A DNA stretch of 56,337 nucleotides, counting the filler, from Asterionella formosa (taxonomy: Eukaryota): assembly GCA_002256025.1 (NCBI GenBank). It is 4 parts of 4 records of this genome, joined end to end, with 100 filler letters (N's around TTAATTAATTAA, not from the genome) between each part and the next. Parts side by side here need not be neighbours in the genome. Positions count along the whole stretch, not along the records: positions 1 to 14,023 come from NKIB01006246.1; positions 14,124 to 28,129 come from NKIB01006247.1; positions 28,230 to 42,238 come from NKIB01006255.1; positions 42,339 to 56,337 come from NKIB01006259.1. One strand, 5' to 3'. Numbering within the stretch: the first letter of the stretch is position 1; each line of letters begins with the position of its first letter. The notes under the pieces are model-generated. The model worked only from the letters and a program-made list of their open reading frames with translations. It was not told the DNA's origin and made no database searches. Below are positions 2,776 to 50,414 of this stretch, one piece after another. Both the position numbers and the translations under genes were made by a program.

Positions 2776-3924
2776 GATGAGTTGCTTGCTTCGTTTAGAC
2801 TGTGTTATCCTATGAGAGGTGTGATATCGATTGTCGAGAACAAATGACTGATCGGAACAAGCAACGACTGAGGATGGTGAAGTGTTCTCACGACCTTTTG
2901 CTTTCCAAGTTGATGAGAAATACCGGTACTTGTCTTCGTTTTATGTAGTACCGGTAGTATGGTACCTGGTACCGGTAGTATGGTACCTGGTACTGTAAAC
3001 TGGTACTGGTACTGTATTGCCTGTACGTTGGAAAAGTGGTACCAGGTACCTGTTGTCAGCGATTATTAGTGCGTATAGGTAACCTTATTCAAATCATTTC
3101 AAATATACATACTGGTACAAGGTACCGGGTACAGCATACTTAACAATCATATACTCGGAGTGGTACCTGGTACCAGGTACCTTGTAGGAGTTGCGGTAAA
3201 AGACGGTTTTTGTTAATTACGACAAAAAGATGGCTAAATTTCTCGTTCATCGCAACTTTCTCTCTCACAATTTACCGGAGTTCCCTACCTGGTTCCCTGG
3301 TACCAGCAAGTTGCGGTCATTTTGCTGAAATTGATGACATGACATAGGACAGGAGTTTGAGTCCATAGAAAACATCATCAATTCACTCTTCAAAATTGTC
3401 AGTATGATCACCACTTAGTGATGTAGGTTTGATGCTAATTTTATTCTTCAAAACAGGGAAACGTCAAGAGAACACAGCAATGACCAGGGCAATAGAGGGG
3501 TGGCCCAAAGCAAAACTAAGCGTCNNNNNNNNNNNNNNNNNNNNNNNNNNNNNNNNNNNNNNNNNNNNNNNNNNNNNNNNNNNNNNNNNNNNNNNNNNNN
3601 NNNNNNNNNNNNNNNNNNNNNNNNNNNNNNNNNNNNNNNNNNNNNNNNNNNNNNNNNNNNNNNNNNNNNNNNNNNNNNNNNNNNNNNNNNNNNNNNNNNN
3701 NNNNNNNNNNNNNNNNNNNNNNNNNNNNNNNNNNNNNNNNNNNNNNNNNNNNNNNNNNNNNNNNNNNNNNNNNNNNNNNNNNNNNNNNNNNNNNNNNNNN
3801 NNNNNNNNNNNNNNNNNNNNNNNNNNNNNNNNNNNNNNNNNNNNNNNNNNNNNNNNNNNNNNNNNNNNNNNNNNNNNNNNNNNNNNNNNNNNNNNNNNNN
3901 NNNNNNNNNNNNNNNNNNNNNNNN

Positions 3925-4085
3925 ACGGTCTTGCCTGGTGTGCAAGGAAAAGTGGGTTGCCCCCCCCCCTACAAGCAGTGTACCGCCTTCCTAGGCCGTC
4001 ACACTTTCGCCTAATGCTATGGCGACAACAATCACCTTTCATGAAAGAGGGTTGGGGACTCACCTACATTAACAAAACTAGAGAA
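3925..4085 (+). repeat. Second, inverted copy of the repeat at 60-287 (5' part lost in the gap)
   Basis: ggtcttgcctggtgtgcaagg...gccttcctagg...actcacctaca aligns by eye with the reverse complement of 70-192. Confidence 0.7.
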
Positions 4086-4239
4086 GCACATGGACTGGTT
4101 GGCAGCAGGCTGTGCTATGAAATTCCATATGTAACTCCATGGTCTTAGAAAGCGTGTTATAAGTGAGTTTCAATTTTAATTTATGCAATTGTTACCATCA
4201 CACTACAACATTCAGCACTCACTCAATCAATTGAAATGC

Positions 4240-4660
4240 ATTAGGTGATGGACGAGCAGACACAATACCATGTTCTCGTGCAAACAACCTAATATCGGAA
4301 TCTATAGGTGATAAAGGGTACACAATATCATGACGTTCTCGTACAAACAAGGTGACAGTGGCATCTAGAGATGATGGAGGGTATAAGAACATGGCTGTTC
4401 TCATTCAAAAAAGTGACATTGGTATCTATAGGTGATGGAGGTTACGCAATAACACGTTCTCGTACAAGCTAGGTAACATTGGTATCTATAAATGATGGAG
4501 GGTAGGCAATAAAATGTTCTCATACAAACAAGGTGACATTGGTATCTATGTGTGATGGAGGGTATGCAATAAAACATTCTCATACAAACAAGGTGACATT
4601 AGTCTAATTAGTATCCATAGGTGATGGAGGGTACACAATAACACGTTCACGTAGAAACAG
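4240..4660. repeat. Tandem repeat, ~60-bp unit, about 7 degenerate copies
   Basis: Unit approximates acaaacaaggtgacattggtatctataggtgatggagggtacacaataacacgttctcgt and recurs once per 60-nt line. Confidence 0.9.
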
Positions 4661-6989
4661 CCCACCATTAGTACCTTTATTTACTGGCAATCATCCATCA
4701 TTTTCAAGGACCAGAATGTATTACCAGTGTCTCTGAAGTCTTACGGGTTTATCCTACTATTCGTTCGATATATGCATGTTGATCATATGATAATGATATC
4801 ATTAATATAAAAATGAATGATCAAATTTTGTTTTAAGTAGTAGGCTAAATGAATTTTAAAAAAGTAAGATCAAAAAATCTAAATATTGTTATCCATGATC
4901 TAATTTTATTAGCAATCATTTCTGACCAAAAAGTATGATCTGTAATTCATGAAGTTTGATTCATATATCCTCCATGTTTGCATGATCAAAGCATATTTAT
5001 CATATGATAAACGGTGTCAATGATATCAGAAGTGAATCATCTAAGAATTATTATATGATTTGTACCCAAGGAAAAATGATCTATGACTTCTGCTAATTGA
5101 GGGGCTTCATTAAATCACTGACTTGTAGGTATAAGAATTATACGGAAAACATTCAAAAACAGTACATCAGGTTGTGGAAAATAATTATGTCCTCATACAT
5201 TGTATATATCTGAATTATTTATAAGCTTTACTGATGATAGAATACACATGATGTGCAATACAAAGTGTGTCTTTGAACTATGAAAGTGTTCAACTGCTTT
5301 ATATATATTCACATATTACAAATTTTTATAAATGTAGTACTCTACACGGCTAATACATTTGAAATCATTTTTAAAGGTTCCTTTTCATGATGCATAGTAC
5401 TGGTACATATCCTGGAATGAAAGATCACATCAGCCACATCCAAAGAAAAACTGAATTGACGATACAAAACTTTGCGGCTTGTTAGAAGGATTGAAAATGG
5501 CGAAGTGAATAGAATCTATCTATGGTTCGTCAAGGGCACATGCCAAGATGATCAATTTTGGGGGTCGCAAAGACTAAATGATTGATTCCTTGTCAAACGA
5601 TTCAATAGCGCATTTTCATTCGGTGGGAAACTACCGATGTCGATAAAAGAAAATTGGTAAGTGCTCTCGTTGGATCAATGAGCAACTGTTAGAACATAAC
5701 TGAATCATTAGTGGCTTTTATCTTTCAGGATATCTTTAATCAAACAGTACTTGATGTAAGATATAAATTACATCGGTGGAACGATTTATTGATGTGTACT
5801 TATTCGATAATGGTCTTACTTATTGTTATTCAGAAATGTTAGAAAATAAATCAATATTTGGTAAGTCAATCCAGAATGGGAAGAATTTACTGTAGTGTAA
5901 ACAAGCAAACCATAAATAAGAAATCCTTTTCGTAACGAGAAGTGCTACATGTGCATAATAGCAACGACCCGATATAACTATTATAAACTACCAGTATGTA
6001 TGTAAAGTACGTAGCCATGTTGTGTATACATATATACTAGCTACTATATGACGTTTTCTATTAAGTCTTTTTGAGTGCCTGTCCTGATTCACGCTATCCA
6101 TTTTAGCAAATTACGACTGTAACTTGCTATATCAAGTTCCATGTACGACTTCGTACCGGCAATACTGATTTCAATTCCAAATTAATACATGTGTCTCTTC
6201 TTGATATCCATTTAATACACCAACCCGACCGGCTTGTTGTTGTTCCTATATATATTTAGCTTTAATCTAATTTAGATTTGCCTAAATTAATTTTGCTCAA
6301 AGCATAGTCGATTTGATTAAATCTAACATGGTCCCTAAAGACTTTAACCCAAAATTACAATTCGTCCAAACCTTTTTTGTCCCTAATTATCTGAATTTAT
6401 CGGGGAATTTTGTCCAGTCGTGTTTATATGGCCTGCGGGAGCAAGCCGTTAGAAGTTTCATGTTTTGATTTCTTAACGGTTGCCGAGTCGGGGAATATCT
6501 TTCGGTTTTGGGAATGAGTTCACGAACGCGCAAAATTACCAAAACATGCTGGTAAGGAATAATGGACCTCCTGCATGCAGCATGCAAGTTATTATTTTTT
6601 TGCTTACATCACGATCTAGCCATACAGTAATAGTTACCCGCCACTGCCAGTCCACTATTCGGAACAACATGATTGCCCAACGTGCGTACAGTATACATTA
6701 AAAAATGGTTCTCTACTTGCAGCAGTATTACCAGTACTCCTACTATGATGCCTCGGAGGACTCTGCACCATGTACTAAACACTGTATTGGAACGTACCCT
6801 GAATACAGTATTATCACATACAGGTCCTGTTAGTTCAGAATTGTAACCGTATTGCTGGAATCATGCTCAGAGTACACATAGTACTATCCATCGTTGCCCT
6901 AGTATGATACATAATTAGCATCGAGAATACTGTATGGATATACTTATACATACATGAATTTAGACAATGTTGACATCCATCAATCACTA

Positions 6990-7400
6990 TTCATTAAAAA
7001 CATGTTTCTTTCGAGTCTCATACTTGATTCCATCTGTAATCATACAAATTGAGATCTTTCTCAAACCGAAGGCAAGAAAAACTGTTCGTTTGTGCAGTTG
7101 GTTTCAATGTCCTCCTCTGCTCAACAACTCCTAGCCTTGCTGGCAAATCATCAGAGTTATCTCAATAATCAGGAATCATGTCTATACCCAAATTCGAAAC
7201 CAATATTGGAACCATATGTTGCTTCATGAACATATTCATACATTTTTCCACAGAAAAGTCATTGAAATTGGCCATCCCAAATTTCTTGAATGCATTCATG
7301 CATGGCAAATGGATTTGATGGGAAGAATTGAGGAATCTTATCGATTTTGATTGGCAACTTACAGAAAAAAATTAAATACCAGCCGCTGACATCACCTTCC
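6990..7400 (-). pseudogene. Decayed DNA transposase-like fragment (family uncertain, possibly Tc1/IS630-related)
   Basis: Frameshift-corrected reading: KIPQFFPSNPFAMNAFKKFGMANFNDFSVEKMYEYVHE..MVPIL...FGLRKISI...KYETRKK. It resembles the N-terminal part of repetitive diatom transposase-like proteins; no catalytic residues are seen. Confidence 0.35.
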
Positions 7401-7650
7401 AAGTGTACTCACATTACTAGATTAAGCTTCTATTCCAAGATCATTCATTGCTCCATTTGAATTTTGGAGGCAGCACTGCCAGGGCCATCCTCTATTTCCC
7501 CATTTTCCTTCTGATCAAATTGCCTCAAAACACAGGTTGAATATAAGCCCTCTGTCTCAGCATGAAGATTTCGATTTTGAGCAATTTTTATCAGCATCTC
7601 CCCCTTCATTCAATAATTTCCAATGGTTGGGATGTTTACTTATTGATTAG

Positions 7651-7750
7651 AAAAGCTCAATTATGTAAATAACAATTCCTATGACATTGGCTTCATCGCC
7701 AAAAGCTCAATTATGTAAATAACAGCTCCTATGACATTGGCTTCATCGCC
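7651..7750. repeat. Tandem duplication of 50 bp
   Basis: aaaagctcaattatgtaaataaca(at/gc)tcctatgacattggcttcatcgcc occurs twice. Confidence 0.95.
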
Positions 7751-8639
7751 ATCATACTTTGCTTTGGGAGCAAATAGTCTCCTGCTGGACTCACCTGAAT
7801 TCCAATAATTTATGTTTGGATGAATGCTGAGCCTGCTCTTCCCCTAAATTTTCCGAATTTGTTGATTCTGATTGAGTTTTTTGAGACTTCAATTGAGGGA
7901 GCATCAGCTTCAGTTGAGTGCATCAGGTTGGCTCTTTTGTTGACTGATCCAACTTCAACATATTCTTTTACCTCTTTATTTCGAATTTGCCTTGACCCCC
8001 CTAGTTAATAGTCGCTTTGTGACGCTATTATTTAAAAAAACTACGCAACTGTTCTTGGGAATCAAAAGGAACAGCAGGAGTACCAGTATCAGAAAAAACA
8101 CAGGTTATAATGGATGCTGTTCTTGACTTCACAGTTGTTTCTGTAGAAGTCCATCACTCTGCTGATTGGAGAGGTGATTCTATTGCGATCACATGACATT
8201 GAAGGGTAGTAGCACTTGTTCATGTATGTCATCAGGGTTCACAAAGTTACTAGCATGTCCCTTCCAATGTTTTTTTGGTTTATGTATTGAATGAGGAGGT
8301 TGATTGGAATTTAGCGCCCACATAATGATGACTCGCTCTGCCATCACCAACAAAAAAATATCACAACAACTGAAAGTTTGCTGTTTTATGTTTTGCGGTT
8401 TGGTTTCCAATTGGCACTATGATTGCGGTCCTAATGCTATGTCGCAAATCACAAGGCACTGAAGGGAAGCAAAGCAAGCGAAACAACCAAATGCAATCAA
8501 CATGGTGAGCGATGTTGTCACAACCAGAGATTTGTCGCTTGTAAAAAAATATTCAGCTATATTTTTAGAAGTAATGGTTTGTACCAGGCCTACGAAGCTA
8601 CTCTATGTTCTTCGATCATGCACCCAGCTATTAAGATAC

Positions 8640-9020
8640 TACCAGTGGTACCATGGTACCTGAGGTAGCTTTCATACTTACTAGCTGGTATATAAATACT
8701 TAGCTGAGGAGATAATGCGATTCGTTTATATAGTATATTAAAGACTAGAGCGTAGTCGTTGTGATCAGCTGGAGAATCCTTCATCGTGTCATCTCAGCCT
8801 CGAAAATAGCGAATATCTCCACGAAAATTAAGAACGACGTTTTCCTATTCTGTACATATATTAAGCACAAGACAGACAATACAAATCATCAAAGAATGAT
8901 TTTAATTGTACTAATTTTGACATCGAAAATTGAACTCATTGACGACGCCATTTTTCATGAAATTTAGAGGCTCACAATTCAAAACAATGGTCAAACAGAT
9001 TTGACACTTTCACAGTAGCT
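8640..9020 (+). repeat. Dispersed repeat family A, copy 1
   Basis: Shares ggtacctgaggtagc, ctggagaatcct, aaaatagcgaat, cacaattcaaa and acactttcacagta in the same order with 45444-45956 and 50415-50942. Confidence 0.8.
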
Positions 9021-10185: not shown

Positions 10186-10926
10186 TTAATTACTACCACA
10201 TTAAGTAGCATACATGTTATTACATTCTCATTGTTTCCATTAATGTTATACATTTGATTTCATTTACCCACATGTTAATATGTATTGTACATGCAGTTAA
10301 TAATCACTGTACACATATGTATATTGCATTGCACGACGAAGTAGCTAGACTACCGGTACCCTGGTACCTGATGGTCTTACTGATGATGTGCAAACGTTCA
10401 TGATCAGGTGCTAGCTTTGTACACGGTGCTAGTAAATTACTAGTGCACTAGCTTCCACTACGGGTAGCATTCTCTGTCGAATAAAAAGTGTATACCAGGT
10501 ACCTATATACCGCGTAGTATAAACATGACAGGCTCCGATTTTCAGTGGCTCGCAGTGCGTCCCCCCTACTATGTACAAATCAGTGTGCATGTTTGCGCTT
10601 GTTCATTATTGAGATCACTTCGCAAGCAGGTAAGGAAATTGAATTGCTAGCCATGGTTTTTGATGAACTCGAAAGCCTCTTGTGCTTTTACTCAACAGAC
10701 ATATCCATGTCTAAGTAAGCTTAAGAAATAGCGCTTTATTATGAACTGCATTCATGTCTTCGCCACTCAAAGGAAACAAGCGAGGCGTTCAAGAGTCGAT
10801 TGGTTCTTGACCTCCAAAATAAATTAGTAAGCGGTAAACTAACCAATTTTTTCAATCCACAGAGATTTTCTCGTCCCGTCATTACTTGGAAGTGTTATTC
10901 CTTTAAGAACTATCCACTAAACAAAC

Positions 10927-11619: not shown

Positions 11620-12693
11620 GCTATCTCGTTACAAATGCTTTAGCATTCTTTCCCAGCCTTTGAATTTCCAATAATTAGGGGTCTTGACTTTTTGTTATAA
11701 TCCAAGTTTTCATCTATCTTTTTCGANNNNNNNNNNNNNNNNNNNNNNNNNNNNNNNNNNNNNNNNNNNNNNNNNNNNNNNNNNNNNNNNNNNNNNNNNN
11801 NNNNNNNNNNNNNNNNNNNNNNNNNNNNNNNNNNNNNNNNNNNNNNNNNNNNNNNNNNNNNNNNNNNNNNNNNNNNNNNNNNNNNNNNNNNNNNNNNNNN
11901 NNNNNNNNNNNNNNNNNNNNNNNNNNNNNNNNNNNNNNNNNNNNNNNNNNNNNNNNNNNNNNNNNNNNNNNNNNNNNNNNNNNNNNNNNNNNNNNNNNNN
12001 NNNNNNNNNNNNNNNNNNNNNNNNNNNNNNNNNNNNNNNNNNNNNNNNNNNNNNNNNNNNNNNNNNNNNNNNNNNNNNNNNNNNNNNNNNNNNNNNNNNN
12101 NNNNNNNNNNNNNNNTTGAAGCGGAATATTGTTGCAAAGAAATCATTACATCCAAGTCGAAGGTTAAATAGGACGAGAATGCGTTTTTTAATAGGTATCA
12201 TTCAAGTGTAGTAAAATGATTGTATACAATAACAAATCACTATTTTGTATCTACGACATGAACTGGCTTGGCTGGCCTCGACAAGAAAGCCGACTGATTT
12301 GGGTCCATATTGGGATGGTCTTGAATATCGATAATTTCGTCCATAAGGGATTCTCGGTGTTCCGTCTCATGTGCCTCCAGTTGGAAACCAAATGCCAAAC
12401 ATTCCTGTACCAACATGCATATTTCCAACATTTTAGCTCGAGCAATCTACTATGTGGGCTGTGGTTTTGCTGCATTCCTTCAATATGCCAAGTTTGCCAA
12501 AATATAGCAGATCTCATTAGAAAAACTGTTGCAAGACAACGAGTTAAAGTATCACTACAATCGTAATGCAGAGTAAGCTGGAATATTTATTAGTCTACAG
12601 GTTATGACAAATCAGAAAGATTCAAGGCAATCCATAAAAGTACAAGTTCTCGCAGTCCAATGGCAAAATGAAAACTTCCTAACATAGAGTAAC

Positions 12694-13890: not shown

Positions 13891-14158
13891 TGTGCTATCG
13901 AATGCTTGATCCTTCCGTGTTTTCGTTGCGGGTCGCTCATTTGAGGAATACCGGTATAGCTATCAATCCTCACTCACATCATGGCGACTTGACATAAAAA
14001 TAGATGGTACCTGGTACCTGGTANNNNNNNNNNNNNNNNNNNNNNNNNNNNNNNNNNNNNNNNNNNNTTAATTAATTAANNNNNNNNNNNNNNNNNNNNN
14101 NNNNNNNNNNNNNNNNNNNNNNNAAGAAATTTACTTAGGTCCATTATAAGGGAAATCT

Positions 14159-14250: not shown

Positions 14251-14996
14251 GTAGTATTCGTTGAATATATGAGCTAATAAATCTTATGTACAACTTGTTT
14301 TCCCAAGTTGACATCAAAATATGCAACAGGTGTTAGTCGAGTTCTGATATAATTGATATAACCCTAACCCTATATATATCTGTATCAATGTGCAGGATCG
14401 CTCACCTGGTACCCTGGTACCAGGTTGTACCAGTACAGTGTAATAGCTAATATGTACGCGTACAGTGTATATTCCAACGATGATCGTGCGAACAGTTATG
14501 GTTTAATTAAACCAAAAAATTAAACCCGCAGTGAAACCGGGTTTAATTTTTCGAATATCACATACACGGTCCTTCCACTTGTATTTTCAGATCAATACCG
14601 TGAAACTTCAAACAATTATCCTCATTGTTTGTTTTGACTTACCGGTACCTGGTACCATACCAGGTACCGTATTCGATGTGTATGTACCGGTGGTATTCAT
14701 AATCATGCTGATGACATTATTAAATAGCTTGCCGGTATATGACGGAACAAAATTACATTTATGCGCCTTGTATTTATTATCATGCTCAATCTCCCTCACC
14801 TCGTCGCTCGATATACATCGTTGCGCTGCATCACTGCTTAGCAGTCACAGCAGAAAAATAACGAGTTGCCTTCAATCATAGAAAAGAGTTGTCTAACTCG
14901 GTGTTTCACCTCTTTTCCTTTCCCTTTTTTCGCAATTGTTGGTTGCAGTAAGAACTGTGGAAAACCAGAAACGACGCTATATGCGACCACTACACC

Positions 14997-18315: not shown

Positions 18316-18486
18316 GGGAAGTAGCTGTTGACATGTCCTGTATATGCCACCCTTAATTTATTCGATTTTTGAATTTTATTTTCTCTTCCTTCTCTTGTCA
18401 TGCATTTTTATGATGTTTTTGTCATAAATTGAGAATTCTAAAAAAAAGCTTGTAAAACTTGCGTTTTATCATTAAGTCTAGCTTTG

Positions 18487-33038: not shown

Positions 33039-35008
33039 ATGCCAGCATGTGTATTGTGTCAACGCTACGCTGGCGGAACATGCATATTACACTGTGCTCT
33101 GTTGGTCTTCGTCGATGAAGACTCTATTCATACAGAGTCACAGTTCCACCATCCAGTGTCGTATTTTGCTCCTCATTCTCCCGAAATCGCTGATAATGAA
33201 GAAGAACTCAGTGATTCTCATTCATTTGATGAACAAAATCATGCGATGAATGAAAATATCGGCGGAAATGTGGCAGACATCACTTCTGAAGTAGAAATGG
33301 TTGAAAAGTTGCAATACCAAGAAAATATGTCTCACTATTTGTCCAGAACATCAAGATGACCATCATAAAATCAGAGAAACTATTGCGTTTCTAAAACAAA
33401 AGATATTCAAGAAAAAGTCCGAGGTAGATCAAGACCTCGAATTCAAGAAGATCAATGCAGACAGAGATGTGATGACCATGCAGGCTAAGGCAGTTGATGC
33501 ACTGAGTCGGGAATGAAGTCTGAAACACAAAATTGAATCTTTTTCCAAATCATACATGGAAGAAAAAGAATTTCTTTGTAAAATCATTGAAAGCAATCCC
33601 GAAGGCAGCTACTTTTGTGAAGAGTCGGCATGTGAAATGTGTAGAGTTATTATGCCAAAGCAAACGGCATTTTCCTTGAGTTTGCCGAAATCGCATGGAC
33701 AACTAAAATTGTGGAAAGATTTGTAAACTCGTACCCCGCAAGATATATGCAATTATGCCTCTGTATTTTATGGAGTCAAAGGTATCAAAAAATCATGTTC
33801 AGATTTTAAAGATCTTGCATATTGGGACCTTGAAACAATTACCTCTATGATCCATTATATAATTCATGAACTTCATCCAAGTGATGTAAAGGTTATATTT
33901 GATCTGGATGAGAACCCAGAAAAGGGTAAAAACAATCCATATATATACCAAGGTGATTGTCATCCACTTCATCACGAAAGTAACTATGTGCTAATTGTGT
34001 ATTGCAAAAGATCAGATGAGGAGGAAAACAATCATTTTGTGCATTATCTTTTTGCTATAAATGATGGATTATGTCAAGTCCGTGATCCAGGAAAAGATGC
34101 AATTTTGGATGAACATTATGATCAAGTATTTCACCTTGCCCGTAAGTACTGCATCATCCCCGGATGCAAAAAAGAATTGGAATTGTTATGCACCGATACA
34201 GGATATCTTCCACAAGAATTCCATATACCTGAAGAAATTGGGTTCTCGGAATCTTTCTATACTAGCACCAAAGCACGACCATTGCAGATCAGTATGGCCA
34301 CTGGACATGATTCCATGTCATTTCAACCAGAAGATGACAGTGGATGGTCATGTGGACCTTTTACAATTGTGAAAGTGTTGGAAACTCTATTGCAATTAGA
34401 AAGGAATGGCAAAACCAAATTTCTTGGCAAACGGGCACATTTCCGTTTGGAGACTGAGTCCTGGAAAGTTTTAAAACGTCAGGTGGTAGCAACAGATCGA
34501 ACAGACGATTTCTTATCCATTACATCTGACCCACCAACCAAGTCAACATACTTTCATCTTGGAACAGTTTGGCCTCAAGTGACAACGACAAATTCTCGTG
34601 AGGATATTTTTCAGTTGGAAATAACTGTTCTTCAATTTTGTATCGACAAAATTTTGACATCCTATTTAGATTTATAAAAGTTGTTGAACGAAGTATTTGG
34701 ACGAGTTCCTTGCAACTCTTCTTTCAAGAAGGATGAAGTTGTCTACGTAAAATCCATGATACAACAAAGTAATGACAAACTTGCTCCCTTTAAATGGTAT
34801 AATCATGCATCTCTTGGCCAAATTTCTGGATGCATCAATTGACAAAAAGTTGAAAGAAAATTTTGTATCTGATGATAGCCCTTCTGGAATCAACTTGAAG
34901 AAGTTTGCAGACTCATATCGAACTGCAGTTGAAAAGTAGAGAAGCAAAATTTCGGACGAAACGAGAAGGACCATCTTAGCTTCTTTGGGAGTGAAAAAGA
35001 ACAAATAA
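33039..35008 (+). pseudogene. Transposon-borne Ulp1/C48-like cysteine protease gene, disrupted
   Basis: In ORF 33847-34677, NNHFVHY...RDP...FQPEDDSGWSCGPF has the H-D-Q-C order of clan CE proteases. Upstream acidic, coiled-coil and Cys-rich fragments. The inverted copy at 44953-45440 shows that the frame originally ran on to ~35008. Confidence 0.6.
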
Positions 35009-35137
35009 TGGACCATTGGGATTATGCAATGTCATCATTTCTTAGGAAATTGTAGTTTGTGAAAACCTCATAAAAACCAATTTAGTATGCGAAACTATAT
35101 TGTTACCATTATTATTTATATTATTCTTATATATTTA

Positions 35138-38100
35138 TCAACGTTCGCTTGTTAATTTTTGGTCCCACCCGATTGATTTCCATAAATGATGTGGAGGCAT
35201 GGCAACATAAAATTTATCTTTCCGTATCTGTTCCAAAACTTCTTGCGGTTTCTCAGATTTCCTTGATTCCTGTGGTTTCAAAGCAGGAACAATAAATGCT
35301 GCCGAAAGTATGCATGTTATGAAATTCAACAACGCTCAATTCAGTTGTATCATTGCATATGGTGTCTCCTCTTGCAAAAAACATAGCTTCGTTTATGAAT
35401 TTTCATTTCAGTTGAACTTTTCAAGGAACGAATACACGCTAAGAGAATGGTTGTTGAGTTGGAGAAAATAACATTTCCCCAAAGAAGTAGTTTTGCAGGA
35501 ACTGTGTAGGAACTTGATCCATCTCCCTTCTCCCAGTTCACTTCGACCCAGTCAAACCATTCACGACCAGAGATTCCTGCCTTTGAATCATTATTCCATT
35601 TCGGATGGCATCTGAAAATAGTAGTTTGGCCGGGAACGATAATTTCAATTTTAACATGATAATAAAAGTCAATCCTTACAATGGAAACAGGCCCAATCCC
35701 ATCTTCAAGACTTTTGATTTTTGCTATTTCTATTGCTGAATTCGCAATGCTCTTTACGTAGTTGGCCCCCTTCGGTAAATCAGGATGAACCAATTGAGAC
35801 AAGGGTGCATGATCCTTACTCCGTGATACATGCCCAATCTTATTAGGGACACCTGCTATAGTCCATAGACCATTTGATGATGAAGCAGAAAATTGAACTT
35901 TAACAGGAAGGGCTGGTGAATGGATTTTGGTAGGCGATATTCCCAAATTTTCAGGCGACCTACTAGGCAACATCATTGTATCCGGAATCATTCCTTCGAA
36001 ATCAATTTCTGTTGAAATACCCTCATTTACATTGACGGTATTTTCTCTACTTATCTTCTTTTGTTTGTTTTCTGTATGTAATGAATCACTTACAAAAAAA
36101 ATTTCGTGCCAAGGCAAACTGCCTTGTTTCATATGACCTTGTTAAAATGTCATGCTTTAATCGATGTAATTGTCCATTGACACGCTTACTGGGTCGCTCG
36201 TTTCAATTTGTCTTTCAAAAAAGACTCCAAATATCCACCAAAAAAATTAAGAGGAGATCCGAACTTCCTAATCAGATGAGGGTAATGTTTCATTCCATGA
36301 TATTTTGCCATTCGTAAGCCAATTTGAGATATCATTTCCCGTTGGGGACCAATCATAATCTTAGTAACTGACATAAATCTCTTCACCCTTTCCTCTAAAA
36401 TATCAATATATGTTGATGCATATTGTGGTATGAATAAAGTGTCATTGATAGATATACATAACAATAACAGCAATGTGAAATCCTTTTCTAGGTGCGTGTT
36501 CTCTGAACCCATCATTCTTCACAGACATAATCCGGGAATTTCTTGCCCTGACATTTTCGACAAAGCTGTCATCCCAGATCTGTATGACAATTTTGGAATA
36601 TCACGATCGCTTTGCCTTGCTTTCCAAATGACTATTGATATATCTAGCAGCCACTTTGTTCGAAGTATACTTTCGAAAATAGCTACATTTCTGGTGCTGG
36701 TACAAGTGTTGGGTCTTGATTTTTGCCAGTGTAGAGTCGATATTTTTGGTAACTGGTGCGTGTGTCGCTCCTGTTTGGTCTTTGCCCGTTTCTTCGGTTG
36801 CTCTTGATCAAGAAAAGCAGAGTCTGTTTTTTCATTGTTACGTTTATGATCGGAGAAGTTTTCTGGAATATCTGGAGACTTTCTTTCTTTAAAAAAACAT
36901 GCCCATTCTTCAGGGATGATAGTCCGATAATTGTACAAAGATTCCAAAATGTACTTAAATATTCCAAGCAGTAATTGATGAAGAACCTCAAATGGAGTTG
37001 CACCAAATAATCCTTCTAAGTCACCACCAAAAAATGATTTATTAGTGCAGGCATAATAGGATTATGCGATATAACACTGCACCACTCGTTTGCTGTTGCG
37101 TATTTGCCATTAGATTGGGAGACACAATACTCAGGTGGGATACATGGCAATTTTCCATCGGGATATGCATTTTTGTCAAGAAACTTGTTTAAAAACATTT
37201 TAACATCTGACACTTTACGACGTTCACATCCAATATCAGGATTATCAGCATCTTCAGTTGAAACCAGGCAATCACGACAAACATATCGTCGATATAATCC
37301 ATTACCACCACTGAAGCCACAAATTTTATTGTGTTCTTCTGTATCAACAATGATCATTCCAACTTGGAAATAAACTTTTGTCATACCAAGACCATGAACC
37401 CAAATAGCTATCGTATGACTTGTTTGGATCTTCGAAAGGCGACAATAGAAATCCTGTAACAGAATGATATAATTTGAGTCTACATAAGGACAAGTTGTCA
37501 CCAGATAACTTATTATTCATTAATTTTCCAGATCACTGACTTCAATGTCTGTCAAAAGAGATACCAATTGCCATCCATCAACTTTTTTTCTTCCTTCTAA
37601 CGTTAAGTTTAACATTGTCAGCAAAAACGGATGCTCGGAATCTTTCATTTGTTTATCAATAGGTGAACCATCACTGAAAACTGCTAGGGCAACAAATAAA
37701 CACCCTGTCTTAAACACTCCATTTTCTGATGCAGGAGACTTGTTGAATGCATTTTCAAACCAAGTCGCAGAAGTTACTTCGTCATATATGCGTTCTCCAC
37801 AAGTTGTAAGTAGTTTCACTTGTGAGTGACATACAAAATGTTGCATGATTTCGGAATCACGTAGCAATCCTGCCATGAGCTGTACTGGTTCGAAATAATG
37901 GAATGTGCGTGGGATGATCATATTTGAATTGTTATCAATCTTTATTTGTTTGGTCAACAGTTGACCACCAGCTAATGTTGGTGGAAATGAAATATCCATG
38001 CGTTTTTCCAAAGTCTGGTAGGATGGAGCTTGATACCTGCAATCCATCAAAATATTTCATTGCTTTTGCCTTGAACAGCCATTTCATTAGATGATCAAAG

Positions 38101-41395: not shown

Positions 41396-42350
41396 CCAGT
41401 ATATCACTTACTACCTGCTACTGGTACTCTGTATATATATATGATATATTGTTATTGTCATACCAGTATGATGTACCGGTACAAAAAATGAAGAGCTCCC
41501 GCCCAAAAAAGGGGCTTAAACAATTTGCTACCAAAACCTTGGCGGTTATGACTTACACCAATTGAATGGTCTAAATAATTAGTTTCAACGGACGTAGAAA
41601 ATATCGATGCAAACAAATTTCAGAAATAATACCGGTACACGTAGTCGTGAAAAACAATGGACATATAGTGCATTGAGTATTTTCGAATTATGTATATGCG
41701 AGTATGATCATCCCAACCATATCAGATGTTCCATATCGAGAGCGCCTTTGAATTTTATAAATGTATAACACTTCATATATATATATATTTTTACAAATTT
41801 TATTACTATATTCATGGCATATATATTTTTGAAATCGTTCTGTCATGTTAACAAACAATGCCTGCTGCTTCATGAAAAGATACGTCATAGTAAAGCACAT
41901 GACAAGAAAAGAAAGTTTTCGCAATACATCACGAAAAACATTGTGACTTCGACACATTGCGCCTTCGAAGGATGGATAATGTTTAAGGTAATGAAGCCAT
42001 CAATGTGGTACTTGGATGACAATCGTTGGGAGACAGGCAGCACAACAACAAATTGTTAACTAAACGCAGCCACATTTCCTTTTTTCTCAGTTGATTCAAC
42101 AGCTCGTTTCGCTTGTTGGGGAGCACCAATGTAAAACAAAACCAAACCAAATTGCGTAAGTGCTCTTGTCGCTCGTTGGACCTATTCACTTCTGTTGGAA
42201 CAAAACTAACAAAACGTTTATATTCTCTCAAAGTTAAGNNNNNNNNNNNNNNNNNNNNNNNNNNNNNNNNNNNNNNNNNNNNTTAATTAATTAANNNNNN
42301 NNNNNNNNNNNNNNNNNNNNNNNNNNNNNNNNNNNNNNTACAGAATTAAT

Positions 42351-42465
42351 TGAAGTATTTCAAATAATTATGTGAAGTATTTCAAATAATTATGTGAAGT
42401 ATTTCAAATAATTATGTGAAGTATTTCAAATAATTATGTGAAGTATTTCAAATAATTATGTGAAG
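42351..42465. repeat. Perfect minisatellite, 22-bp unit x5
   Basis: (tgaagtatttcaaataattatg)5 followed by tgaag. Confidence 0.97.
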
Positions 42466-42660
42466 GTGATCACGTAATATAGTGATGATCAGGAATGCAT
42501 GCATGATACTCTCATCAAATAATTAACGTGATGTATTCAGATAATATATAGATATATTCAAGTAAGCATTTTGATGTATTCAACTAATTCATGTGATCCA
42601 TTCAAAATCAACTAGGCTTATTTACGTGATGGTCACTTCACGTAATACGCGGCTTAGATG

Positions 42661-45445
42661 TGGGAGAAGGGAGATGGATCAAGTTCCTACACAGTTCCTG
42701 CAAAACTACTTCTTTGGGGAAATGTTATTTTCTCCAACACAACAACCATTCTCTTAGCGTGTATTTGTTCCTTGAAAAGTTCAACTGAAATGAAAATTCA
42801 TAAACGTATGCTGCTTTTTTGCAAGGGGAGACACCTTATGCAATCATACAACTGGCTTAATTGAGCGTTGTTGAATTTCATAACATACTTTCGGTAGCAT
42901 TTGTTGTACCTGCTTTGAAACCACAGGAATCAAGGAAATCTCTGAAACCGCAAGAAGGTGGGGAATTTTAGGTTAAATTAATTGCCCCTGAGGGTCATTT
43001 TAGGTTATTCCGCACCTAAAATTCAGGAAATGATTAAAAATATTTTCTCGTCCTACAGACAAATGTTGGCACAAGGCTACAGACGAAGTTAAACTTCCTT
43101 TTCAGTTCTTGGAATTTTAGGTGCGGGAAAACCTAATAATGACTCCCTGCATTCAATACTTTTGTACAGTGTAAAACGGATGACGGATTCTGATGGTTCA
43201 TACCGTACTTAGCTTGAGGTCGGTACGTGATGCATTGGATGTACCGGTACCAGGCACCAGGTACCTGATAGGCACCTGACATCGAGCATTGATGTAGCGG
43301 TAGATAAATAGAGAATTATACTTGACGGTACTTATGACTTACTATGATATTATGGAGTATCAATACCGGTACGAGGTACCAGGTACCTGGTACCTGATGG
43401 ATGCGCATACATACATGTCAGTACGTACCGGTGTGTTGTAGAATCTTGTCGGCATGAACTTTTCTTTGTCCTTGTCATTAAATATTGCGAAACCATATGA
43501 TCGGTCTACATTTTGCCACGGCTCACCTTTGTCATTGCTAGCTACGGATGTGCTCATTTGTATGAAGCGACGATCGATTATCGCAGCAATCAACCGAAGT
43601 CCATGCTGTCTCGTCAATCTCTGAAATACTAGCTAGTATGCAGCAAAATTGCAGGTGAACTTTGGGTTGTGGTATCTTGTGACAGTTGCATGTTGGTAAT
43701 GCGACCACCATTCTAACAGCTCGTTGCATGTGTGGATGTGATTTTAAAATAGAATGTTGATGACTAGATATCATGACAGCCATGAAAATGTTCGTTTGAT
43801 TATGTAGTCGTCTGATTTATTCTGTTTACCATCCATGCCTAGTATAGAGTCATAGTATGTCTTCGTTTTCGTCGCCAATTCAAGCCCAATTGATTGCCCG
43901 CTATCATCGATTAACCACCCTGTTCTTATTGCTAAAAAACCTTTCGAACGTGTTTGTCTATTATTCTCCAAATTCAAGTTTTTAAACTCTGGCGCATTTT
44001 TGATTGTTGAATTGAATCAAGCTTTCTGGATTCTCTATCACCAGCATGTCATGCAAATTTGTCACTGAGGGTCCACCATTTGTTGCAAGCTGATAAAGCA
44101 GGTCGGGTAATTAAAAATTCACACAAATAACATGATTCTTTGATGGATTTAAGAGATGATTGAACTCGCTCCATAAGCCTATCATTGAGGCTTCATCAAC
44201 GATGCAAGGAGTGCATGAAGCTAAACTTACAATGTGCAAGATTATTCAAAGTAGTAGCAGTATGGATAAATCTACTACTAAAGAATACAATGTTAACATC
44301 GAAACTCTGATTTTGAAACTTTGATGCTAATGAATTGCTACTAGTAGTTATTTAAATGAACAAAGGAATTAATTTGGTTCAAGCAGTCAACCGAAGAATC
44401 AGGCCACAATTGTTGAATGTTGTCAACAATTTTCAACAGAACAAGTAGTACTGACACTACTAATAGCTAGCTATTCATTTCATCTACATTCTATCATTTG
44501 GTTGAGGTTGAAATGAAGTGATAGTGAGTCGTAATTTACATATTGTGTGTGTATGCTATAGTTACAATATTTTTTGTCATCTGCTCCACCCTGCAACGTA
44601 TTATCAGTACTTTCTGTATTAGGTATGGATGGGTGTGGTCCGCCCAAGGTAGAAGTCGTTCTCGTGTGTACATTTTGTACCGACCATTTTTTAGGTGTCG
44701 GTTTGACCTAAAATTCAGGGTGTGAATAAGAAGTTTTGGAACAGATACGGAAAGATAATTTTTATGTTGCCATGCCTCCACGTAATTTATGGAAATCAAT
44801 CGGGTGGGACCAAAAACTAACAAGCGAACGTTGATAAATATACAAGAATAATATAAATGATAATGCTAACAATATAGTTTCGCATACTAAATTGGTTATT
44901 ATGAGGTTTTCACAAACTACAATTTCCTAAGAAATGATTATCCAATGGTCCATTATTTCTTCTTTTTCACTCCCAAAGAACCTAAGATGGTCCTTCTCGT
45001 TTCGTCCGGAATTTTGCTTCTCCACTTTTCAACTGCAGTTCGATATGAGTCTGTAAACTTTTTCAATTTGATTCCAGAAGGGCTATCATCAGATACAAAA
45101 TTTTCTTTAAACTTTTTGTCAATTTTGATGCATCCAGCCAGAAATGTGGCCAAGAGGTGCATGATTATACCATTTGAAGGGAGCAAGTTTGTCATTACTT
45201 TGTTGTATCATGGATTTTCCGTAGACAACTTCATCCTTCTTGAAAGAAGAGTTGCAAGGAACTCGTCCAAATATTTAACATTTTTAAATCTAAATAGGAT
45301 GTCAAAATTTTGTCGATACAAAATTGAAGAACAGTTATTTCCAACTGAAACATATCCTCACGAGAATTTGTCGTTGTCACTTGAGGCCAAACTGTTCCAA
45401 GATGAAAGTATGTTGACTTGGTTGGTGGGTCAGATGTAATGGATA
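42661..45445 (+). repeat. Inverted duplicate of 34514-35535 (3' ends of the transposase and Ulp1-like genes), split by an insertion
   Basis: 42661-42957 matches the reverse complement of 35239-35535, and 44728-45445 matches the reverse complement of 34514-35244. ORF translations are nearly identical. Confidence 0.95.
42958..44727. mobile_element. 1770-bp insertion flanked by AAGAAG direct repeats; unclassified element
   Basis: AAGAAG at 42952-42957 and 44728-44733, against a single cttctt at the empty site 35239-35244. Subterminal inverted repeat gaattttaggttaaa / tttgacctaaaattc. Confidence 0.85.
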
Positions 45446-46150
45446 TGGCTACGCACATGGGATATATGCTCAGGGTACCTGAGGTAGCCCTTGTAGACGC
45501 TAGTATATAATCACTTAGCTTAGATGTTGCGATTTGTTTATGCATATGAAATGCTACAGTGTAGTTCTTGTGAGCGACTGGAGAATCCTGCATCATGCTG
45601 TCTCTGCCTTGACCAGCATGATGAAAATAGCGAATTTCTCCACAAAAATGAAGAGGATGCTTTGCTATTGGGTACACATATATCTAACACAACATAGATA
45701 ATTCAAGCGTAAAAAAACTGTAATAACACTAATGTTGACAATGAAAATTGAATTTGCCAATTGTGCATTTTATATGTACTTTAGATGATTCACAATTCAA
45801 AGCAACAAAGTTACAATGAGATTTAACACTTTCACAGTATGCGACACTCTACACTACGGCAATCTGTAGTTTGAACCTCTATTTAAGTTATGTCGATTAA
45901 CAGTCAATTGACATTTTCAAAATGATTCTTTTGTTTATGATTACTGATCAAGTTGGTGACTACATACAGCTAAAAATCTGCTGACAATGACTAGAAGTTG
46001 CTGACAGTGACTACTTAGAATTTGCTGACTACTACAGCTAGAAGTTACTGATTGGTGAATTCCATTAGTCAACTGTCTTCCAGTTGCTGAATACCATTAC
46101 CAGTAATTGTAGGTGAACATGATTTTGATGATCAGAACATGACTTGGATT
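45444..46150 (+). repeat. Dispersed repeat family A, copy 2, followed by GCTGAC-motif repeats
   Basis: Colinear with 50415-50942 up to ...ttttcaaaatga.tcttttgttta.gattact..tc.agttg, then gctgac repeats at 45980-46090. Confidence 0.8.
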
Positions 46151-46712
46151 TTATGTATGATAATTTAACATTATATAGAATGTTACTTAAGAGAGTTTGG
46201 AATGGAAAGCCAGCCTATCTCAAACAGTAGCCTTGACCCTGAGGAGTCATTGGGAGTGAGTCGAAACTGAATACCGGTAAGTGCGCATAAAACCTGTGCT
46301 ATCGGGTCTTCCTGGGATCTTGTTTACTGTTTGCATACATACAACGGGTACGGTATATCGATACCACTCTGGGATTACTACTGGTACCAGGTACCAGTGC
46401 CGGGTACACCCATCTTGTTCCACACCTGTCTTTGCCACCTGGTATGGTCCCGGGTACACCATCAGGTACTGGTATGGTACCAGGTACCTGGCACCTGGCA
46501 CCTGGTACTCTGAGTACCTACCTTGTACGGTGCGAGCACCAACACAAGTACCGGTAGGATATTACGGCTCGCTTCTCGCCATCATAGTCATCATCATGCA
46601 TGATGGTTTCAAAAGTTGCAAAAGGTGGAAGAAAGACATTATCATTTGCATGGACAGAAGATAGCGCGTTTAATACGGCAGCAGCAGCAGCAGCAACAGC
46701 AACAACAACAAC

Positions 46713-47561
46713 ATGAGCGAAGAAGAGCCCCAAACAGAGACAGCAGACGCCGGAGAAGAAGATGCCCCCGTCAAGGAAGAAGAAAGTACCGCGGTCTTTG
46801 AGCCAGTAGTAAGTTTCGAAGCGCAAGGTCAACCCCTGATCACCCCTTGTGGATTGCCGTAGCCCGTAGTAATGTCTGGAAGTCACCCGAGTTCGAAATC
46901 CTGGGCGATCGTCTTCTCTGAAACTCCCAATTACCTTGTTGTCGCTCACCGGTCAACTCTTTTTGCAGGTTAAGCTTGAGGAAGTGGAAGTCAAGAGTGG
47001 CGAAGAAGAGGAGGTAAGTGGAGTTGTTGAGACGAAACGGAGCCTGATTGATTGTTTTACTCAGATTTCAACTTTGTTCAGGAAGTTGTCTTTACGATGA
47101 GGGCGAAATTGTTCATCTTTGGCGAGACCTTGTTGGATGTAGGGTCCGGGAAGAAGTCATGGAGAGAGCGTGGGGTAGGAGATATGCGCATCTTGCGTCA
47201 TAGAGAGCACCAGCGTCTTCGTGTTTTGATGCGTCAGGAGAAGACCATGAAGGTTATTGCCAACCATGCATTGGATCCCAGAATTACGCTTGAACCAAAC
47301 GTTGGATCCGATAGATCTTGGGTATGGTCTGCATTTGACTTCGCAGAAGGAGAACTGAAGGAAACCACTTTTGCTGTCAGATTTGCTGATTCGGAGATTG
47401 CTCTAGACTTCAAGAAGAAGTTTGAAGAAATGCAGAAGGACATGGCAGCGCTACTTGCTGGTGGAGACAAACCTGATGCAGATGGAGGGAAGGCTGCCGA
47501 TGAAGCTGCAGATGCTCTTAGTAAGGCCAAAGTCGTCGATGACGACGATGACGACGTGTAG
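46713..47561 (+). CDS. RANBP1: Ran-binding protein 1, 3 exons (46713-46808, 46969-47013, 47082-47561)
   Basis: FEPVVKLEEVEVKSGEEEEEV.F.MRAKLF...W.ERGVG..RIL.H....RVLMRQEKTMKV.ANH, GSDRSWVW and DFAEGE..F.VRF. GT-AG introns are in frame. Confidence 0.96.
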
Positions 47562-47818
47562 ACATGCCTTTATTGCAATATTTCGTTTGTCCATTTGGTT
47601 GTTTCAGAGCATGTGTTGTAGAAATGATTACAGGTTGATTTCTTGCGATGTATGTAGTTATTAACAGTAATAGTCTCACAATAGAACCTCCAATGAAAGA
47701 TTTTTCGAGATAAGGACATCGATCCAGATCTGAATGAGTCGAGGTTTATTCTAAGGATTGAAACCAAAGATACAGTTTAAGACGAGTACTTTTTACACCA
47801 ATACATTCCAGCATTGCA

Positions 47819-49794
47819 TTATACCATCTCTAACAATCTGGAACTTCGTGGAGCTACTTCTCTTAGCCGACTCCTATTAATCACAGGATCAGAAACTTTA
47901 CGAAGAAGCGTTGTTTCTCGTGTTGTCGTCGATCGTCGAAGCAGAGCGATTCCTTCATTGACTTTAATATCAAGGGTTTCTTTGTCACCCATCAAAATGG
48001 CGTCTTCATGTTCAATGCCAAACATCCCCAAGATGCGTGCATATCCATTGCACAATGTGAATGCACAGAGCGCCAGAATCAGCAAAGGGGCGTATATCGA
48101 AAAACTAGTACCAAAGAATGGAACAGTTGACATCATATTCATGACATGTGAAAAGGCACAATCCGTGGTCGAAGTATCATATTTGATTATGAAAAGAAAG
48201 TTGTACGCCAGCGGAAATTGTAGACGAACAAGATACTGAGCATTGAAGAGCAAAGCGATCCCATTACTTTGCTTATTTCCCCGAAGGCGGTACGGCCCAA
48301 AATTGCTCAATTTGAACAAGCTGCTGTATACACATAGCGACATGTACAAAATGGGCAGCAGCGCTGCAAGCTGGAAGAGGAAGCCACGATCTCGATTTCC
48401 TGGCGTATCAAACATTCTCAATGCTAAAGCAAAGGGAGATACGTTAAAGGGCAATGCCAATGTCGCCTCACTCCACAAGACAGCACCAGACATGACTGCA
48501 AACGCCATTCCGAGCACACGATAGAAGGGACGGCGTAGGCAAGCTATCCAGAAATACCGTATATTAACTCCGAGTTTCCCGCATGGTTTCTTGGAGCTCG
48601 TTGGAGTTTCTCCTCCTTTAGCTTCGCTAGCGTCGCCGCCGCAATTTGCGAGTTCGGCATAAAAGTTGCTGTGCTGAACCAATGCATTCCACCGTTGTTC
48701 TGAGCTGACAACTTCCTCTTGAGCACGTTCCAACCTAGCGTTTAACTTTGCCAAACTAGCAATGGATGGAATACCATCATCCAGTTCAATATCGCATGTT
48801 TCTTCATGTCGACCTCTACCTGTAGTTCGTCTTTGATGCATTTCTGGGCTCAGCACGGCAGTTGACTTCCGTGCAGTCAACAGTTTGTCCACACATCGAG
48901 CATAGTAAGGATCCATTGCCACGCGACTATCTTCACTGTCGCCTATGGTCGCAGCAGCCTTGTCAATCAAATCTTCACAATCCTGCAGTTCCCAGACGGC
49001 TTCGAATAATGCTTCATCCGCACTGCTAGCAACAATCTGAGTTCGCCGAAGCTCGGTTTCTGGATTTGCCTGTCGCCATACCTGTTTCGGCAAATCGACT
49101 AGACTGTATCCCAGAAGGAGCACAACCATCAAGAATCCATAGGTATTTCCGAGCGCCATCAGCACAGGTACAATGTGACCGAACGATTTCATCTTGACAG
49201 CAAGGGCAACGACAAAAAGCACAGCAGCCTGTAAATCAAGTAGAATCAAAAATAGTTGGTTGGTTAATTGTCAACTCCACGCATCGGCATTTCAAACGAG
49301 TCAACGTACGCATGCTCCCATGATCCAGCCACGCACGGCTATTCTGCATCCAGCTTGGAGTCTTGAATACCAAGTGAAGCACCCCGAAAGAAGAGCATGC
49401 CGAAAAAGCGGCAAGATGATCCATCCTAGAAAGGCTGTTGACCAATAGACGACTTTCCATGGGAGGTAGGTGTCATTCGGCGTGCAGCAACTCTCGGCCT
49501 CCGGTGAGCCTTCGGCGTATCTGTGTATTGTCAGAGCACGAGATGAGTCAAGTATGGAAGGCGTGTTGGGACTTTGGCAAGGTACGGTCTACTTCAGCGT
49601 CCCAGCACTTACACTGTAGTGACCGTTAGATCGATTGGAAGCAATGCAATGCCCCCGAAACCCAGAGTAAAGCTCAACGTGACCAGAAAGAGAATCAATA
49701 TCGACGTTTTGCGAGCGGCAAAATGGTTTACCAACAGGGCCGCCAACACGAAGAAGATGGCGAACAATATGCCTAGCGTGCTCTCAGCGTCCAT
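47819..49794 (-). CDS. LMBR1-like multi-pass membrane protein (LMBRD2-like), 3 exons (49794-49613, 49520-49310, 49228-47819)
   Basis: LLPIDL, W.VVYWST..LGW.ILP, MALGNTYG...LLGY.LVDLP, LLFNAQYLVRLQFPLAYNFL and VPFFG..F..YAP. Confidence 0.9.
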
Positions 49795-50414
49795 GGTGAC
49801 AATACACGAAGAAGAATTTTATTTTAGAGCTATCTCTCGAACTACCAGGTACCTGGTACCGGGAGCCAGGTACGGTACCGGTACCTTTTTAAAAAAAAAA
49901 CCCAAGAAATGGTCTCAAACCAGAGAGAATCACGCCGAGCCGACAGTGCGTCAAACCTACCGGTACGTCGTAACTACCTGGTACCAGGTACCTGGTCTCT
50001 TCACTTGTAGTACATGTAGTAGGTAGGAGTACCAGTCCATGGAGTACCAGTACCTGGAAGGTCCACCCCCAGTAGAACCCATTTTATGCACACCTTTTCA
50101 GTTTCAACTCACTCCCAATGATTTGTCCCATGCATGCCAGACAAGATAGGCCAGCTTCGATGGACATAATATTCCTTGAGTATTTTAGGAAAGCATTACT
50201 CTGATTTACAGTCTCTGAACATGACTCAGATTTGCTGACTGGGCTGATAAGTAGTAACCCCCAGTTCAGCAAATTGTCTTCTACTAGCTTCAGAATACAA
50301 ATAGGAACTCATGTCATTCTATTTATAAACATGGTCACACTATCACGCTTGATGCAACAGTGTCCTGGCATATTTGCAATATCATAGCTACATACTATCA
50401 CAGGTACCATATAC

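Follow-up and report, generated by a model that had tools for sequence, protein, structure and literature searches.

What are the runs of overlapping GGTACC palindromes that stand in front of genes in the genome of the freshwater diatom Asterionella formosa? We address this question in a stretch of 56,337 nucleotides, filler included, from the assembly GCA_002256025.1 (the window, from here on), for which a first-pass annotation had proposed that clusters of GGTACC and TACCWGGTA (W is A or T) mark the 5′ flank of nearly every host gene. We observe directly that these words are enriched, that they take a particular position relative to genes and have no orientation bias, that the DNA flanking them differs from site to site, that the number of units is polymorphic, and that the arrays occur in a second diatom. 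The explanation that we favor, tentatively, is that what forms the arrays is a palindromic cis-element of the promoter region in this diatom lineage, present in clusters whose length is renewed by slippage.

The window is nuclear DNA, and consists of contigs joined at three N44-TTAATTAATTAA-N44 linkers (14024-14123, 28130-28229, and 42239-42338). The TTAATTAATTAA linker has stops in all six frames and is of the type used for contig concatenation. Because of these linkers, the window is to be taken as a pseudo-scaffold, in which neighborhood across the joins is not assured, as for the TRM13 gene beside the first of two leucine-rich repeat genes (LRR gene 1). There are also two longer runs of Ns at 3525-3924 and 11727-12115.

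Word enrichment and position in the window

GGTACC occurs 57 times in the window when 5.62 occurrences are expected (~10x), and TACCWGGTA occurs 26 times when 0.29 are expected (~90x). None of 100 dinucleotide shuffles reaches either count. The same word family, GGTACC/ACCWGG/TACCGGTA, tops the lists of over-represented 6-, 7-, and 8-mers; as examples, GGTACCTG is enriched 38x and TACCGGTA 29x. All the forms that the arrays take can be described as strings of two inverted 4-mers, GGTA and TACC. When the two halves overlap they produce GGTACC, when they abut they produce TACCGGTA, and with one W between them they produce TACCWGGTA. The commonest array form is the head-to-tail GGTACCW heptamer, and the spacing from one GTAC to another peaks at 7 bp (GTACCWGGTAC), with 23 close pairs in the window and 439 in the metagenome loci described below.

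Tandem Repeats Finder reports arrays of period 6-8 at every strong site, in agreement with where the first-pass annotation had placed them, and the weaker sites that it had pointed out are also there (10350-10375, 10490-10512, 14006-14023, 19004-19021, and 52663-52670). We define a cluster as at least 3 G-GTAC or GTAC-C cores inside 40 bp, and by this definition the window has 16 clusters, whose coordinates are given below with the genes or elements they accompany.

Where are the arrays relative to genes? Gene models in the window come from open reading frames (ORFs), Pfam, and spliced RNA contigs. The density of GGTACC is 5.54/kb in the 5′ flanks (7.4 kb, 13% of the window), versus 0.39/kb in 3′ and convergent flanks (2.6 kb), 0.18/kb in genes (16.3 kb), and 0.41/kb in intergenic DNA that is rich in transposable elements (TEs) or of other kinds (29 kb). 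The nine 5′ flanks include 41 of the 57 GGTACC and 13 of the 16 clusters, and GGTACC is present in 8 of the nine. In 20,000 circular shifts, which keep the clustering, the probabilities are p = 0.00075 for GGTACC, 0.003 for the clusters, and 0.014 for the presence in 8 of nine flanks.

These densities and shift tests agree with the first-pass description of arrays that lie on the 5′ side of a gene whichever strand the gene occupies, and of coding DNA and convergent 3′ junctions that are poor in them. An equal density in 3′ flanks and in other intergenic DNA, the outcome that the annotation had set against its own proposal, is not seen in the window.

The words themselves point in the same direction. 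The 6-mers that tell 5′ flanks apart best from the rest of the non-coding DNA are nearly all of this one family (ACCTGG is enriched 25x, GGTACC 13x, and ACCAGG 13x), and the 4-mer most enriched in 5′ flanks over other non-coding DNA is GTAC (3.5x).

Arrays in metagenome contigs of a related diatom

The first-pass annotation had suggested a comparison across diatoms. We scanned metagenomes using as an anchor the 20-nt triple unit, and obtained at least 124 stretches, stored as 123 loci. From the matches listed, we selected 24 loci of at least 4 kb, with GC of 0.42-0.48 and with eukaryotic genes. The tests on these 24 loci leave out two loci that are bacterial by Pfam (L021 and L066, GC 0.41), the high-GC loci, a transposon-like locus (L019), a Copia locus (L035, RVT_2), a locus without an informative ORF (L067), and the duplicates L017, L044, L098, and L104.

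Among the matches listed, the 24 loci carry up to 11 clusters each, and the named homologues of the densest one, L014, are all diatoms. The 24 loci share no long DNA with the window except for a transposon-like stretch, and we found no orthologues of the window proteins in the fetched metagenome loci. The dehydrogenase of the window also has its relatives in diatoms: the named homologues of the 541-amino acid (aa) dehydrogenase are all diatom, with identities of 64% in Seminavis and 54-60% in Cylindrotheca, Skeletonema, Fistulifera, Thalassiosira, Mayamaea, and Cyclotella, and further relatives that are 74-79% identical are found on contigs of 4-7 kb.

Gene calls in the 24 loci were performed blind, using ORFs of at least 150 aa. 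Clusters are present in none of the 24 convergent gaps, in 6 of 22 divergent gaps, and in 9 of 37 tandem gaps; for the two kinds with a 5′ side together, the count is 15 of 59 (Fisher 0.004 against the convergent gaps). The arrays do recur in the contigs of a second diatom, where again they avoid convergent gaps. When the anchor gaps are excluded, the density of cores is 2.97-3.83/kb, versus 1.36/kb in convergent gaps (Mann-Whitney p 0.0099). For gaps of at least 800 bp, at least 3 cores are held by 22 of the 32 with a 5′ side, and by none of the 6 convergent ones. Within tandem gaps, clusters lean to the downstream gene, with a median relative position of 0.67 and none below 0.2 (n=35, in a run that still took in 2-3 TE loci and 2 bacterial ones). 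When the W base in the metagenome loci is read on the sense strand of the ORF nearest downstream, it is A in 73 cases and T in 70 (p 0.87), and this lack of strand bias is what is expected of a palindromic DNA site.

The arrays of the relatives consist of head-to-tail heptamers, mostly of 3-4 units and at most 7, and in 104 of 157 triple units W is the same throughout, which makes them plain direct repeats. We considered whether there is a preference for long perfect palindromes, as W alternates in 4 of 4 triples in the window, and rejected it, because W alternates in 53 of 157 triples in the diatom-like loci and in 9 of 86 in the high-GC loci. In these high-GC loci (GC above 0.6; also L030, L022, L028, and others above 0.5) the heptamer repeat is found within long ORFs, where L030 has as many as 15 cores. 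Apparently, the high-GC arrays are a coding tandem repeat in unrelated organisms, to be kept apart from the diatom case. The 20-nt triple unit had 0 matches in viral contigs.

Individual sites, RNA contigs, and mobile elements

Pfam domains agree with the gene identities of the first-pass annotation (CRAL_TRIO, Ribosomal_L1, TRM13, two LRR, PALP+ACT, NAD_binding_2/11, Ran_BP1, LMBR1, UCH, and MULE). The CRAL-TRIO gene, on the minus strand with its ORF ATG at 2775, has upstream arrays over 2920-3305, which include the clusters 2924-3051 and 3113-3182, and a lone GGTACC at 3299. RPL10A (plus strand, ATG 10927, Ribosomal_L1 domain) has small sites at 10350-10375 and 10490-10512, ~415-575 bp upstream. 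Upstream of TRM13 (minus strand, ATG 13890), at distances of 60-133 bp, are a TACCGGTA (13949-13958) and a repeat of GGTACCT (14006-14023); this array is cut off by the end of the contig that precedes the first linker, so its length there is incomplete. LRR gene 1 (plus strand, ATG 14997, LRR_8 domain) has the clusters 14407-14432 and 14643-14689 (span 14405-14690).

The “plastid protein” gene is a minus-strand ORF of 103 aa (ATG 18798), with the site TACCGGGTACCCTGGTAC at 19004-19021, ~206-223 bp upstream. This ORF opens with a stretch that resembles a signal peptide, and an A|F motif comes next; judged by diatom targeting motifs, this start may be a plastid presequence. The lake RNA contigs differ from the window more densely in this region (18327-19541; ~19 listed differences in 1.2 kb versus ~3/kb in the neighboring genes), and two neighboring changes, at 19003-19004, fall on the border of the small array.

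A divergent pair has a proximal array on each side. The dehydratase (PALP+ACT domains, minus strand, ATG 21730) has the cluster 21935-21965, ~205-235 bp upstream, and the dehydrogenase (NAD_binding_2/11, plus strand, ATG 22621) has the clusters 22202-22332 and 22437-22466 together with a CCTGG run to 22481 (span 22198-22481), 140-420 bp upstream. LRR gene 2 (minus strand, ATG 26394, Pfam LRR) has the cluster 26556-26596, 160-200 bp upstream. Upstream of the RanBP1 ORF (Ran_BP1 domain, plus strand, 47052-47561) are the clusters 46346-46409 and 46452-46553, which include GGCACC unit variants. The LMBR1 gene (LMBR1 domain, minus strand, exons 47819-49588 and beyond) has three clusters directly upstream, 49847-49886, 49961-49993, and 50027-50055 (span 49843-50058). 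Finally, the USP/UCH gene (ATG 52794) has a single TACCGGTA at 52663-52670, 124 bp upstream; it has the sole 5′ flank without GGTACC.

RanBP1 and LMBR1 also have in common a 25-nt element, present twice with one base different (46247-46271 on the plus strand, and 50097-50121 on the minus strand), distal to the GGTACC arrays and in the same orientation relative to each gene. We found no further copies in the rest of the window, allowing up to 3 mismatches, and none in the 123 metagenome loci. The 25-nt element could be a second shared upstream element, or it could be a repeat fragment.

The RNA evidence consists of assembled contigs from four runs (X1, X2, X4, and X5, where X4 is a polyA library) of two studies, and the public RNA libraries that contain the window stretch are lake or freshwater samples. 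For LRR gene 1, the contigs in 3 of the 4 runs have their starts between 14722 and 14799, which leaves 33-110 nt from the end of the last array, and the X2 contig begins at 14498 and spans the array 14643-14689. For LRR gene 2, the listed contigs of all 4 runs end at 26467-26518, 38-89 nt short of the array; RNA contig cover is absent over 26733-27666. The dehydrogenase contigs start at 22197 (X4), 22205 (X2), 22437 (X1, inside the array), and 22518 (X5, 52 nt past 22466), and a spliced dehydratase contig (X5) ends at 21783, 152 nt before the array 21935-21965. As contigs cannot show a transcription start, their ends near the arrays are a weak hint of transcription starts there.

The RNA contigs bring two other pieces of information about the arrays. 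One is a 15-nt insertion of motif units after 22436, present in X2 and X4, and absent in X1 and in the window, at this one locus. The other is a set of loose ends at 14640, 14657, 22446, and 22464, where many other contigs share the array words and then diverge, which implies that the arrays of other loci are present in these libraries, either as RNA or as carried-over DNA.

The first-pass annotation had also reported clusters inside transposons, and 3 of the 16 clusters are indeed inside transposon-like DNA. One of them (29783-29827, in the arrays at 29700-29830) is inside a 1.2-kb element with inverted repeats at 29302-29474 and 30353-30526. The repeats of this element (29302-30526) are ~170 nt long and 92-96% complementary, and it looks like a non-autonomous DNA transposon. 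The other two (43221-43266 and 43367-43430, within 43221-43430) are inside a stretch of ~1.76 kb, 42966-44727. This stretch breaks the right arm of a large inverted repeat (34514-35535 versus 42661-45445, with ~1 kb arms that are 90-98% complementary), and the ~14 nt duplicated at its junction suggest a nested insertion.

Other repeats in the window are worth recording. The regions 6850-8933 and 45489-45751 are transposon-like, and share 73-82% identity with a marine metagenome contig of 4.2 kb (L019) that carries a 1040-aa ORF without a Pfam match; a GGTACC doublet at 8647-8660 is near the end of the window stretch homologous to that contig. In the Copia metagenome locus (L035), there is an array 5′ of the ORFs of one copy, and none between two tandem copies. 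Two tandem repeats are found in gene-poor DNA, one with a 60-bp unit at 4263-4672 (~6.4 copies), and one with a 22-bp unit at 42344-42606 (5.5 near-perfect copies, ~12 overall).

Competing explanations and meaning

How could a promoter-region element of this kind work? The arrays would sit in DNA that is not transcribed, or barely so, just upstream of transcription starts, with one array for each gene of a divergent pair. A dimeric sequence-specific factor might read them on double-stranded DNA, whatever the orientation, and/or the arrays might exclude nucleosomes from the region, and in this way the promoter would be defined or boosted. The length of the arrays would turn over fast by replication slippage, aided by the self-complementary units. 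Such a turnover would result in differences in the number of units between populations, and in a mix of perfect and decayed copies. Because the motif-masked flanks are unrelated, the arrays would have arisen, or would be kept, independently at each promoter.

A number of observations weigh against the promoter-element explanation. The gene models of the window were drawn once the arrays had already been seen, which is a weakness. In the related contigs, just a quarter of the gaps with a 5′ side carry clusters (15/59), and with the anchor gaps excluded, the comparison becomes 5/49 versus 0/24 (Fisher p 0.16). Thus, the claim of arrays at nearly every host gene describes the window well, with 8 of nine flanks, and does not extend to the related contigs. 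In gaps matched by length (300-1500 bp), those with a 5′ side no longer differ from the convergent ones (p 0.56 and 1.0); convergent gaps are short, with a median of 372 bp, so the difference may in part reflect room. From a cluster to the first in-frame ATG of the next ORF the median is 721 bp (10th-90th percentile 314-1182, n=81), a distance inflated by missed first exons, and that is a far and loose placement for a core-promoter element. Moreover, the islands of the relatives are rich in (TAC)n, (GTA)n, and CTAG simple sequence, which looks mutational. And X2 and X4, the latter from polyA, traverse both dehydrogenase arrays (22202-22466), as X2 does the array 14643-14689, so that at least some copies are transcribed. 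Protein binding and any effect on transcription are, in this explanation, inferred.

Could the arrays then be a by-product of mutation without any function? This is the main rival explanation, and it is a real possibility: we would be looking at a hairpin-prone heptamer microsatellite, or at cryptic simple sequence, generated by slippage and template switching and surviving in upstream spacers, the only places where selection tolerates it. Most of what we know about the internal make-up of the arrays fits: the head-to-tail heptamers with few units, the same W in most triples of the relatives, the insertion of a 15-nt stretch of motif units that two lake populations carry, and the units that self-fold (z-scores of -2.3 to -5.5). 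So do the TAC, GTA, and CTAG simple sequence of the relatives' islands, the length-matched contrast that is not significant, and the assembly contig that terminates within an array.

The slippage that the first-pass annotation offered as an alternative accounts well for the unit insertion between populations and for heptamer arrays of 3-4 units, but it leaves unexplained the choice of word and the upstream placement. The reasons why we favor function over mere slippage are of that kind. A single word family expands in 5′ flanks. GGTACC is 13 times denser there than in the 29 kb of TE-rich and other intergenic DNA. Single, non-tandem palindromes such as TACCGGTA are enriched ~29x, which is beyond what slippage produces. 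And the identical word appears in two diatoms that do not share the flanking DNA.

The first-pass annotation had also mentioned cruciforms. Cruciform formation takes perfect arms of ~10 bp or more and a short loop. In a folding of 9 arrays, three of them (2945-3015, 14640-14672, and 22430-22485) reach stems of ~9-12 bp. With predicted stems of 6-12 bp overall, and with two thirds of the relatives' triple units being direct repeats, this mechanism is weakened.

A more ambitious form of the promoter-element explanation, which we regard as doubtful, is that the arrays are a near-universal promoter mark in a group of diatoms, read by a dedicated general regulatory factor or by a DNA-modifying enzyme that would set the start sites, and that slippage would tune the strength of promoters between populations. 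Such a mark would be comparable in function to yeast Reb1/Abf1 or to fly DREF/BEAF-32, and independently evolved.

Traces of mobile DNA seem improbable to us as the source of the arrays. These could be the footprints or target-site duplications of a transposon that prefers promoters, or fragments of miniature inverted-repeat transposable elements (MITEs). DNA transposons do favor the 5′ ends of genes, 3 of the 16 clusters are in transposon-like insertions, there is a MULE transposase in the window, and repeated target-site duplication would yield tandem units with the same W. But there are no terminal inverted repeats or duplications around the arrays, and GGTACCW does not flank any element of the window. 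A family of MITE or transposon copies was considered and rejected, as the motif-masked 250-bp flanks of 21 sites have no similarity, other than the overlaps between neighbors and the 25-nt element.

An epigenetic target is slightly more improbable still. The GTAC, CCWGG, or CCGG words would be the sites of a DNA methyltransferase or of a reader, and would mark promoters chemically. All three of these words, embedded in the arrays, are palindromic in the way that sites of methyltransferases typically are, and the placement of the arrays is symmetric and orientation-free; yet GGTACC has no CpG, the context of 5-methylcytosine in diatoms, and nothing in the window or in the loci points to a dedicated enzyme.

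Least probable, by a small margin, are elements acting in RNA, as hairpins of the 5′ untranslated region that tune translation or stability: the contigs that traverse the arrays (including the polyA one), the other contigs that share array words at the loose ends, and predicted hairpins of -6 to -17 kcal/mol would all suit them, but there is no strand bias (73 versus 70), none of the listed LRR gene 2 contigs of the 4 runs reaches the array, the contigs of LRR gene 1 in 3 of 4 runs and the X5 dehydrogenase contig start after it, metatranscriptomes may include DNA carry-over, and the relatives have a median of 721 bp from array to ATG.

Do the arrays, as promoter elements, resemble any system already known? 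The Drosophila DRE (TATCGATA; DREF/BEAF-32) and the vertebrate NRF1 site are lineage-wide palindromic promoter words of housekeeping genes. Another palindromic promoter word of vertebrates is the TCTCGCGAGA element (10.1101/202622). Like these three, the diatom word is a short palindrome, often in several copies, orientation-free, lineage-specific, and located a short way upstream of many genes that are unrelated, one of which encodes a ribosomal protein. Unlike them, it comes in head-to-tail heptamer arrays with a changing number of units, and it is loosely placed relative to the start and found at a minority of promoters in the related diatom.

A second comparison is with promoter repeats, such as plant (GA/CT)n, yeast poly(dA:dT), and the short tandem repeats (STRs) of human promoters, for which the proposed modes of action are the binding of factors and the exclusion of nucleosomes. 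Promoter microsatellites and STRs are treated in PMC3566118. As in promoter STRs, the diatom tandem units concentrate at gene starts and are polymorphic in number. Unlike in promoter STRs, the diatom unit adds one W to a palindrome of 6 bp, which makes the arrays self-complementary; one word family dominates instead of a spectrum of repeats, and isolated non-tandem palindromes are also enriched.

Two other systems have similar words. SBP-domain factors bind GTAC cores, in the copper-response elements of Chlamydomonas CRR1 and in the SPL sites of plants. Their sites prefer C/G-GTAC flanks of the CGTAC type, in genes regulated by copper or development. The diatom arrays have the GTAC core, and several copies often clustered per promoter, like the SBP/CRR1 sites; unlike them, the diatom cores stand in a G-GTAC-C context, and the genes that bear arrays, some housekeeping and some not, have unrelated functions, which speaks against a narrow regulon. 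We found no literature linking “squamosa promoter binding” factors to diatoms. The STAT GAS element is TTCCWGGAA. TACCWGGTA has the same layout, with 4-nt inverted half-sites around CC-W-GG, read by a dimer in the case of STAT; two symmetric positions differ. We know of no STAT-like factor in diatoms. The likenesses to SBP/CRR1 sites and to STAT GAS are resemblances, not memberships.

Full-text literature searches turned up no account of such arrays, but just cloning sites, primers, and motifs of other kinds; supplements, such as those of 10.64898/2026.03.25.714157 and PMC11267843, might list a motif like this. The main text of the latter, a paper on Phytophthora transcription-factor specificity, has no GTAC motif. 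The arrays look like an undescribed signal of the promoter region, the function of which we infer.

What does this mean for diatoms? In a freshwater diatom of ecological importance, and in at least one more diatom, the promoter side of genes can be recognized by a sequence signal that is simple and very strong. If the arrays are mere simple sequence, they are a practical warning: arrays break assemblies, as indicated by the one contig that ends inside an array and by the many contigs of RNA libraries that branch there. If they are functional, they could provide an anchor for promoter prediction and genome annotation, a bait for isolating the factor that reads them, and a compact part for synthetic diatom promoters. 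And the polymorphism in the number of units would be a natural variation in expression to study in lake populations.

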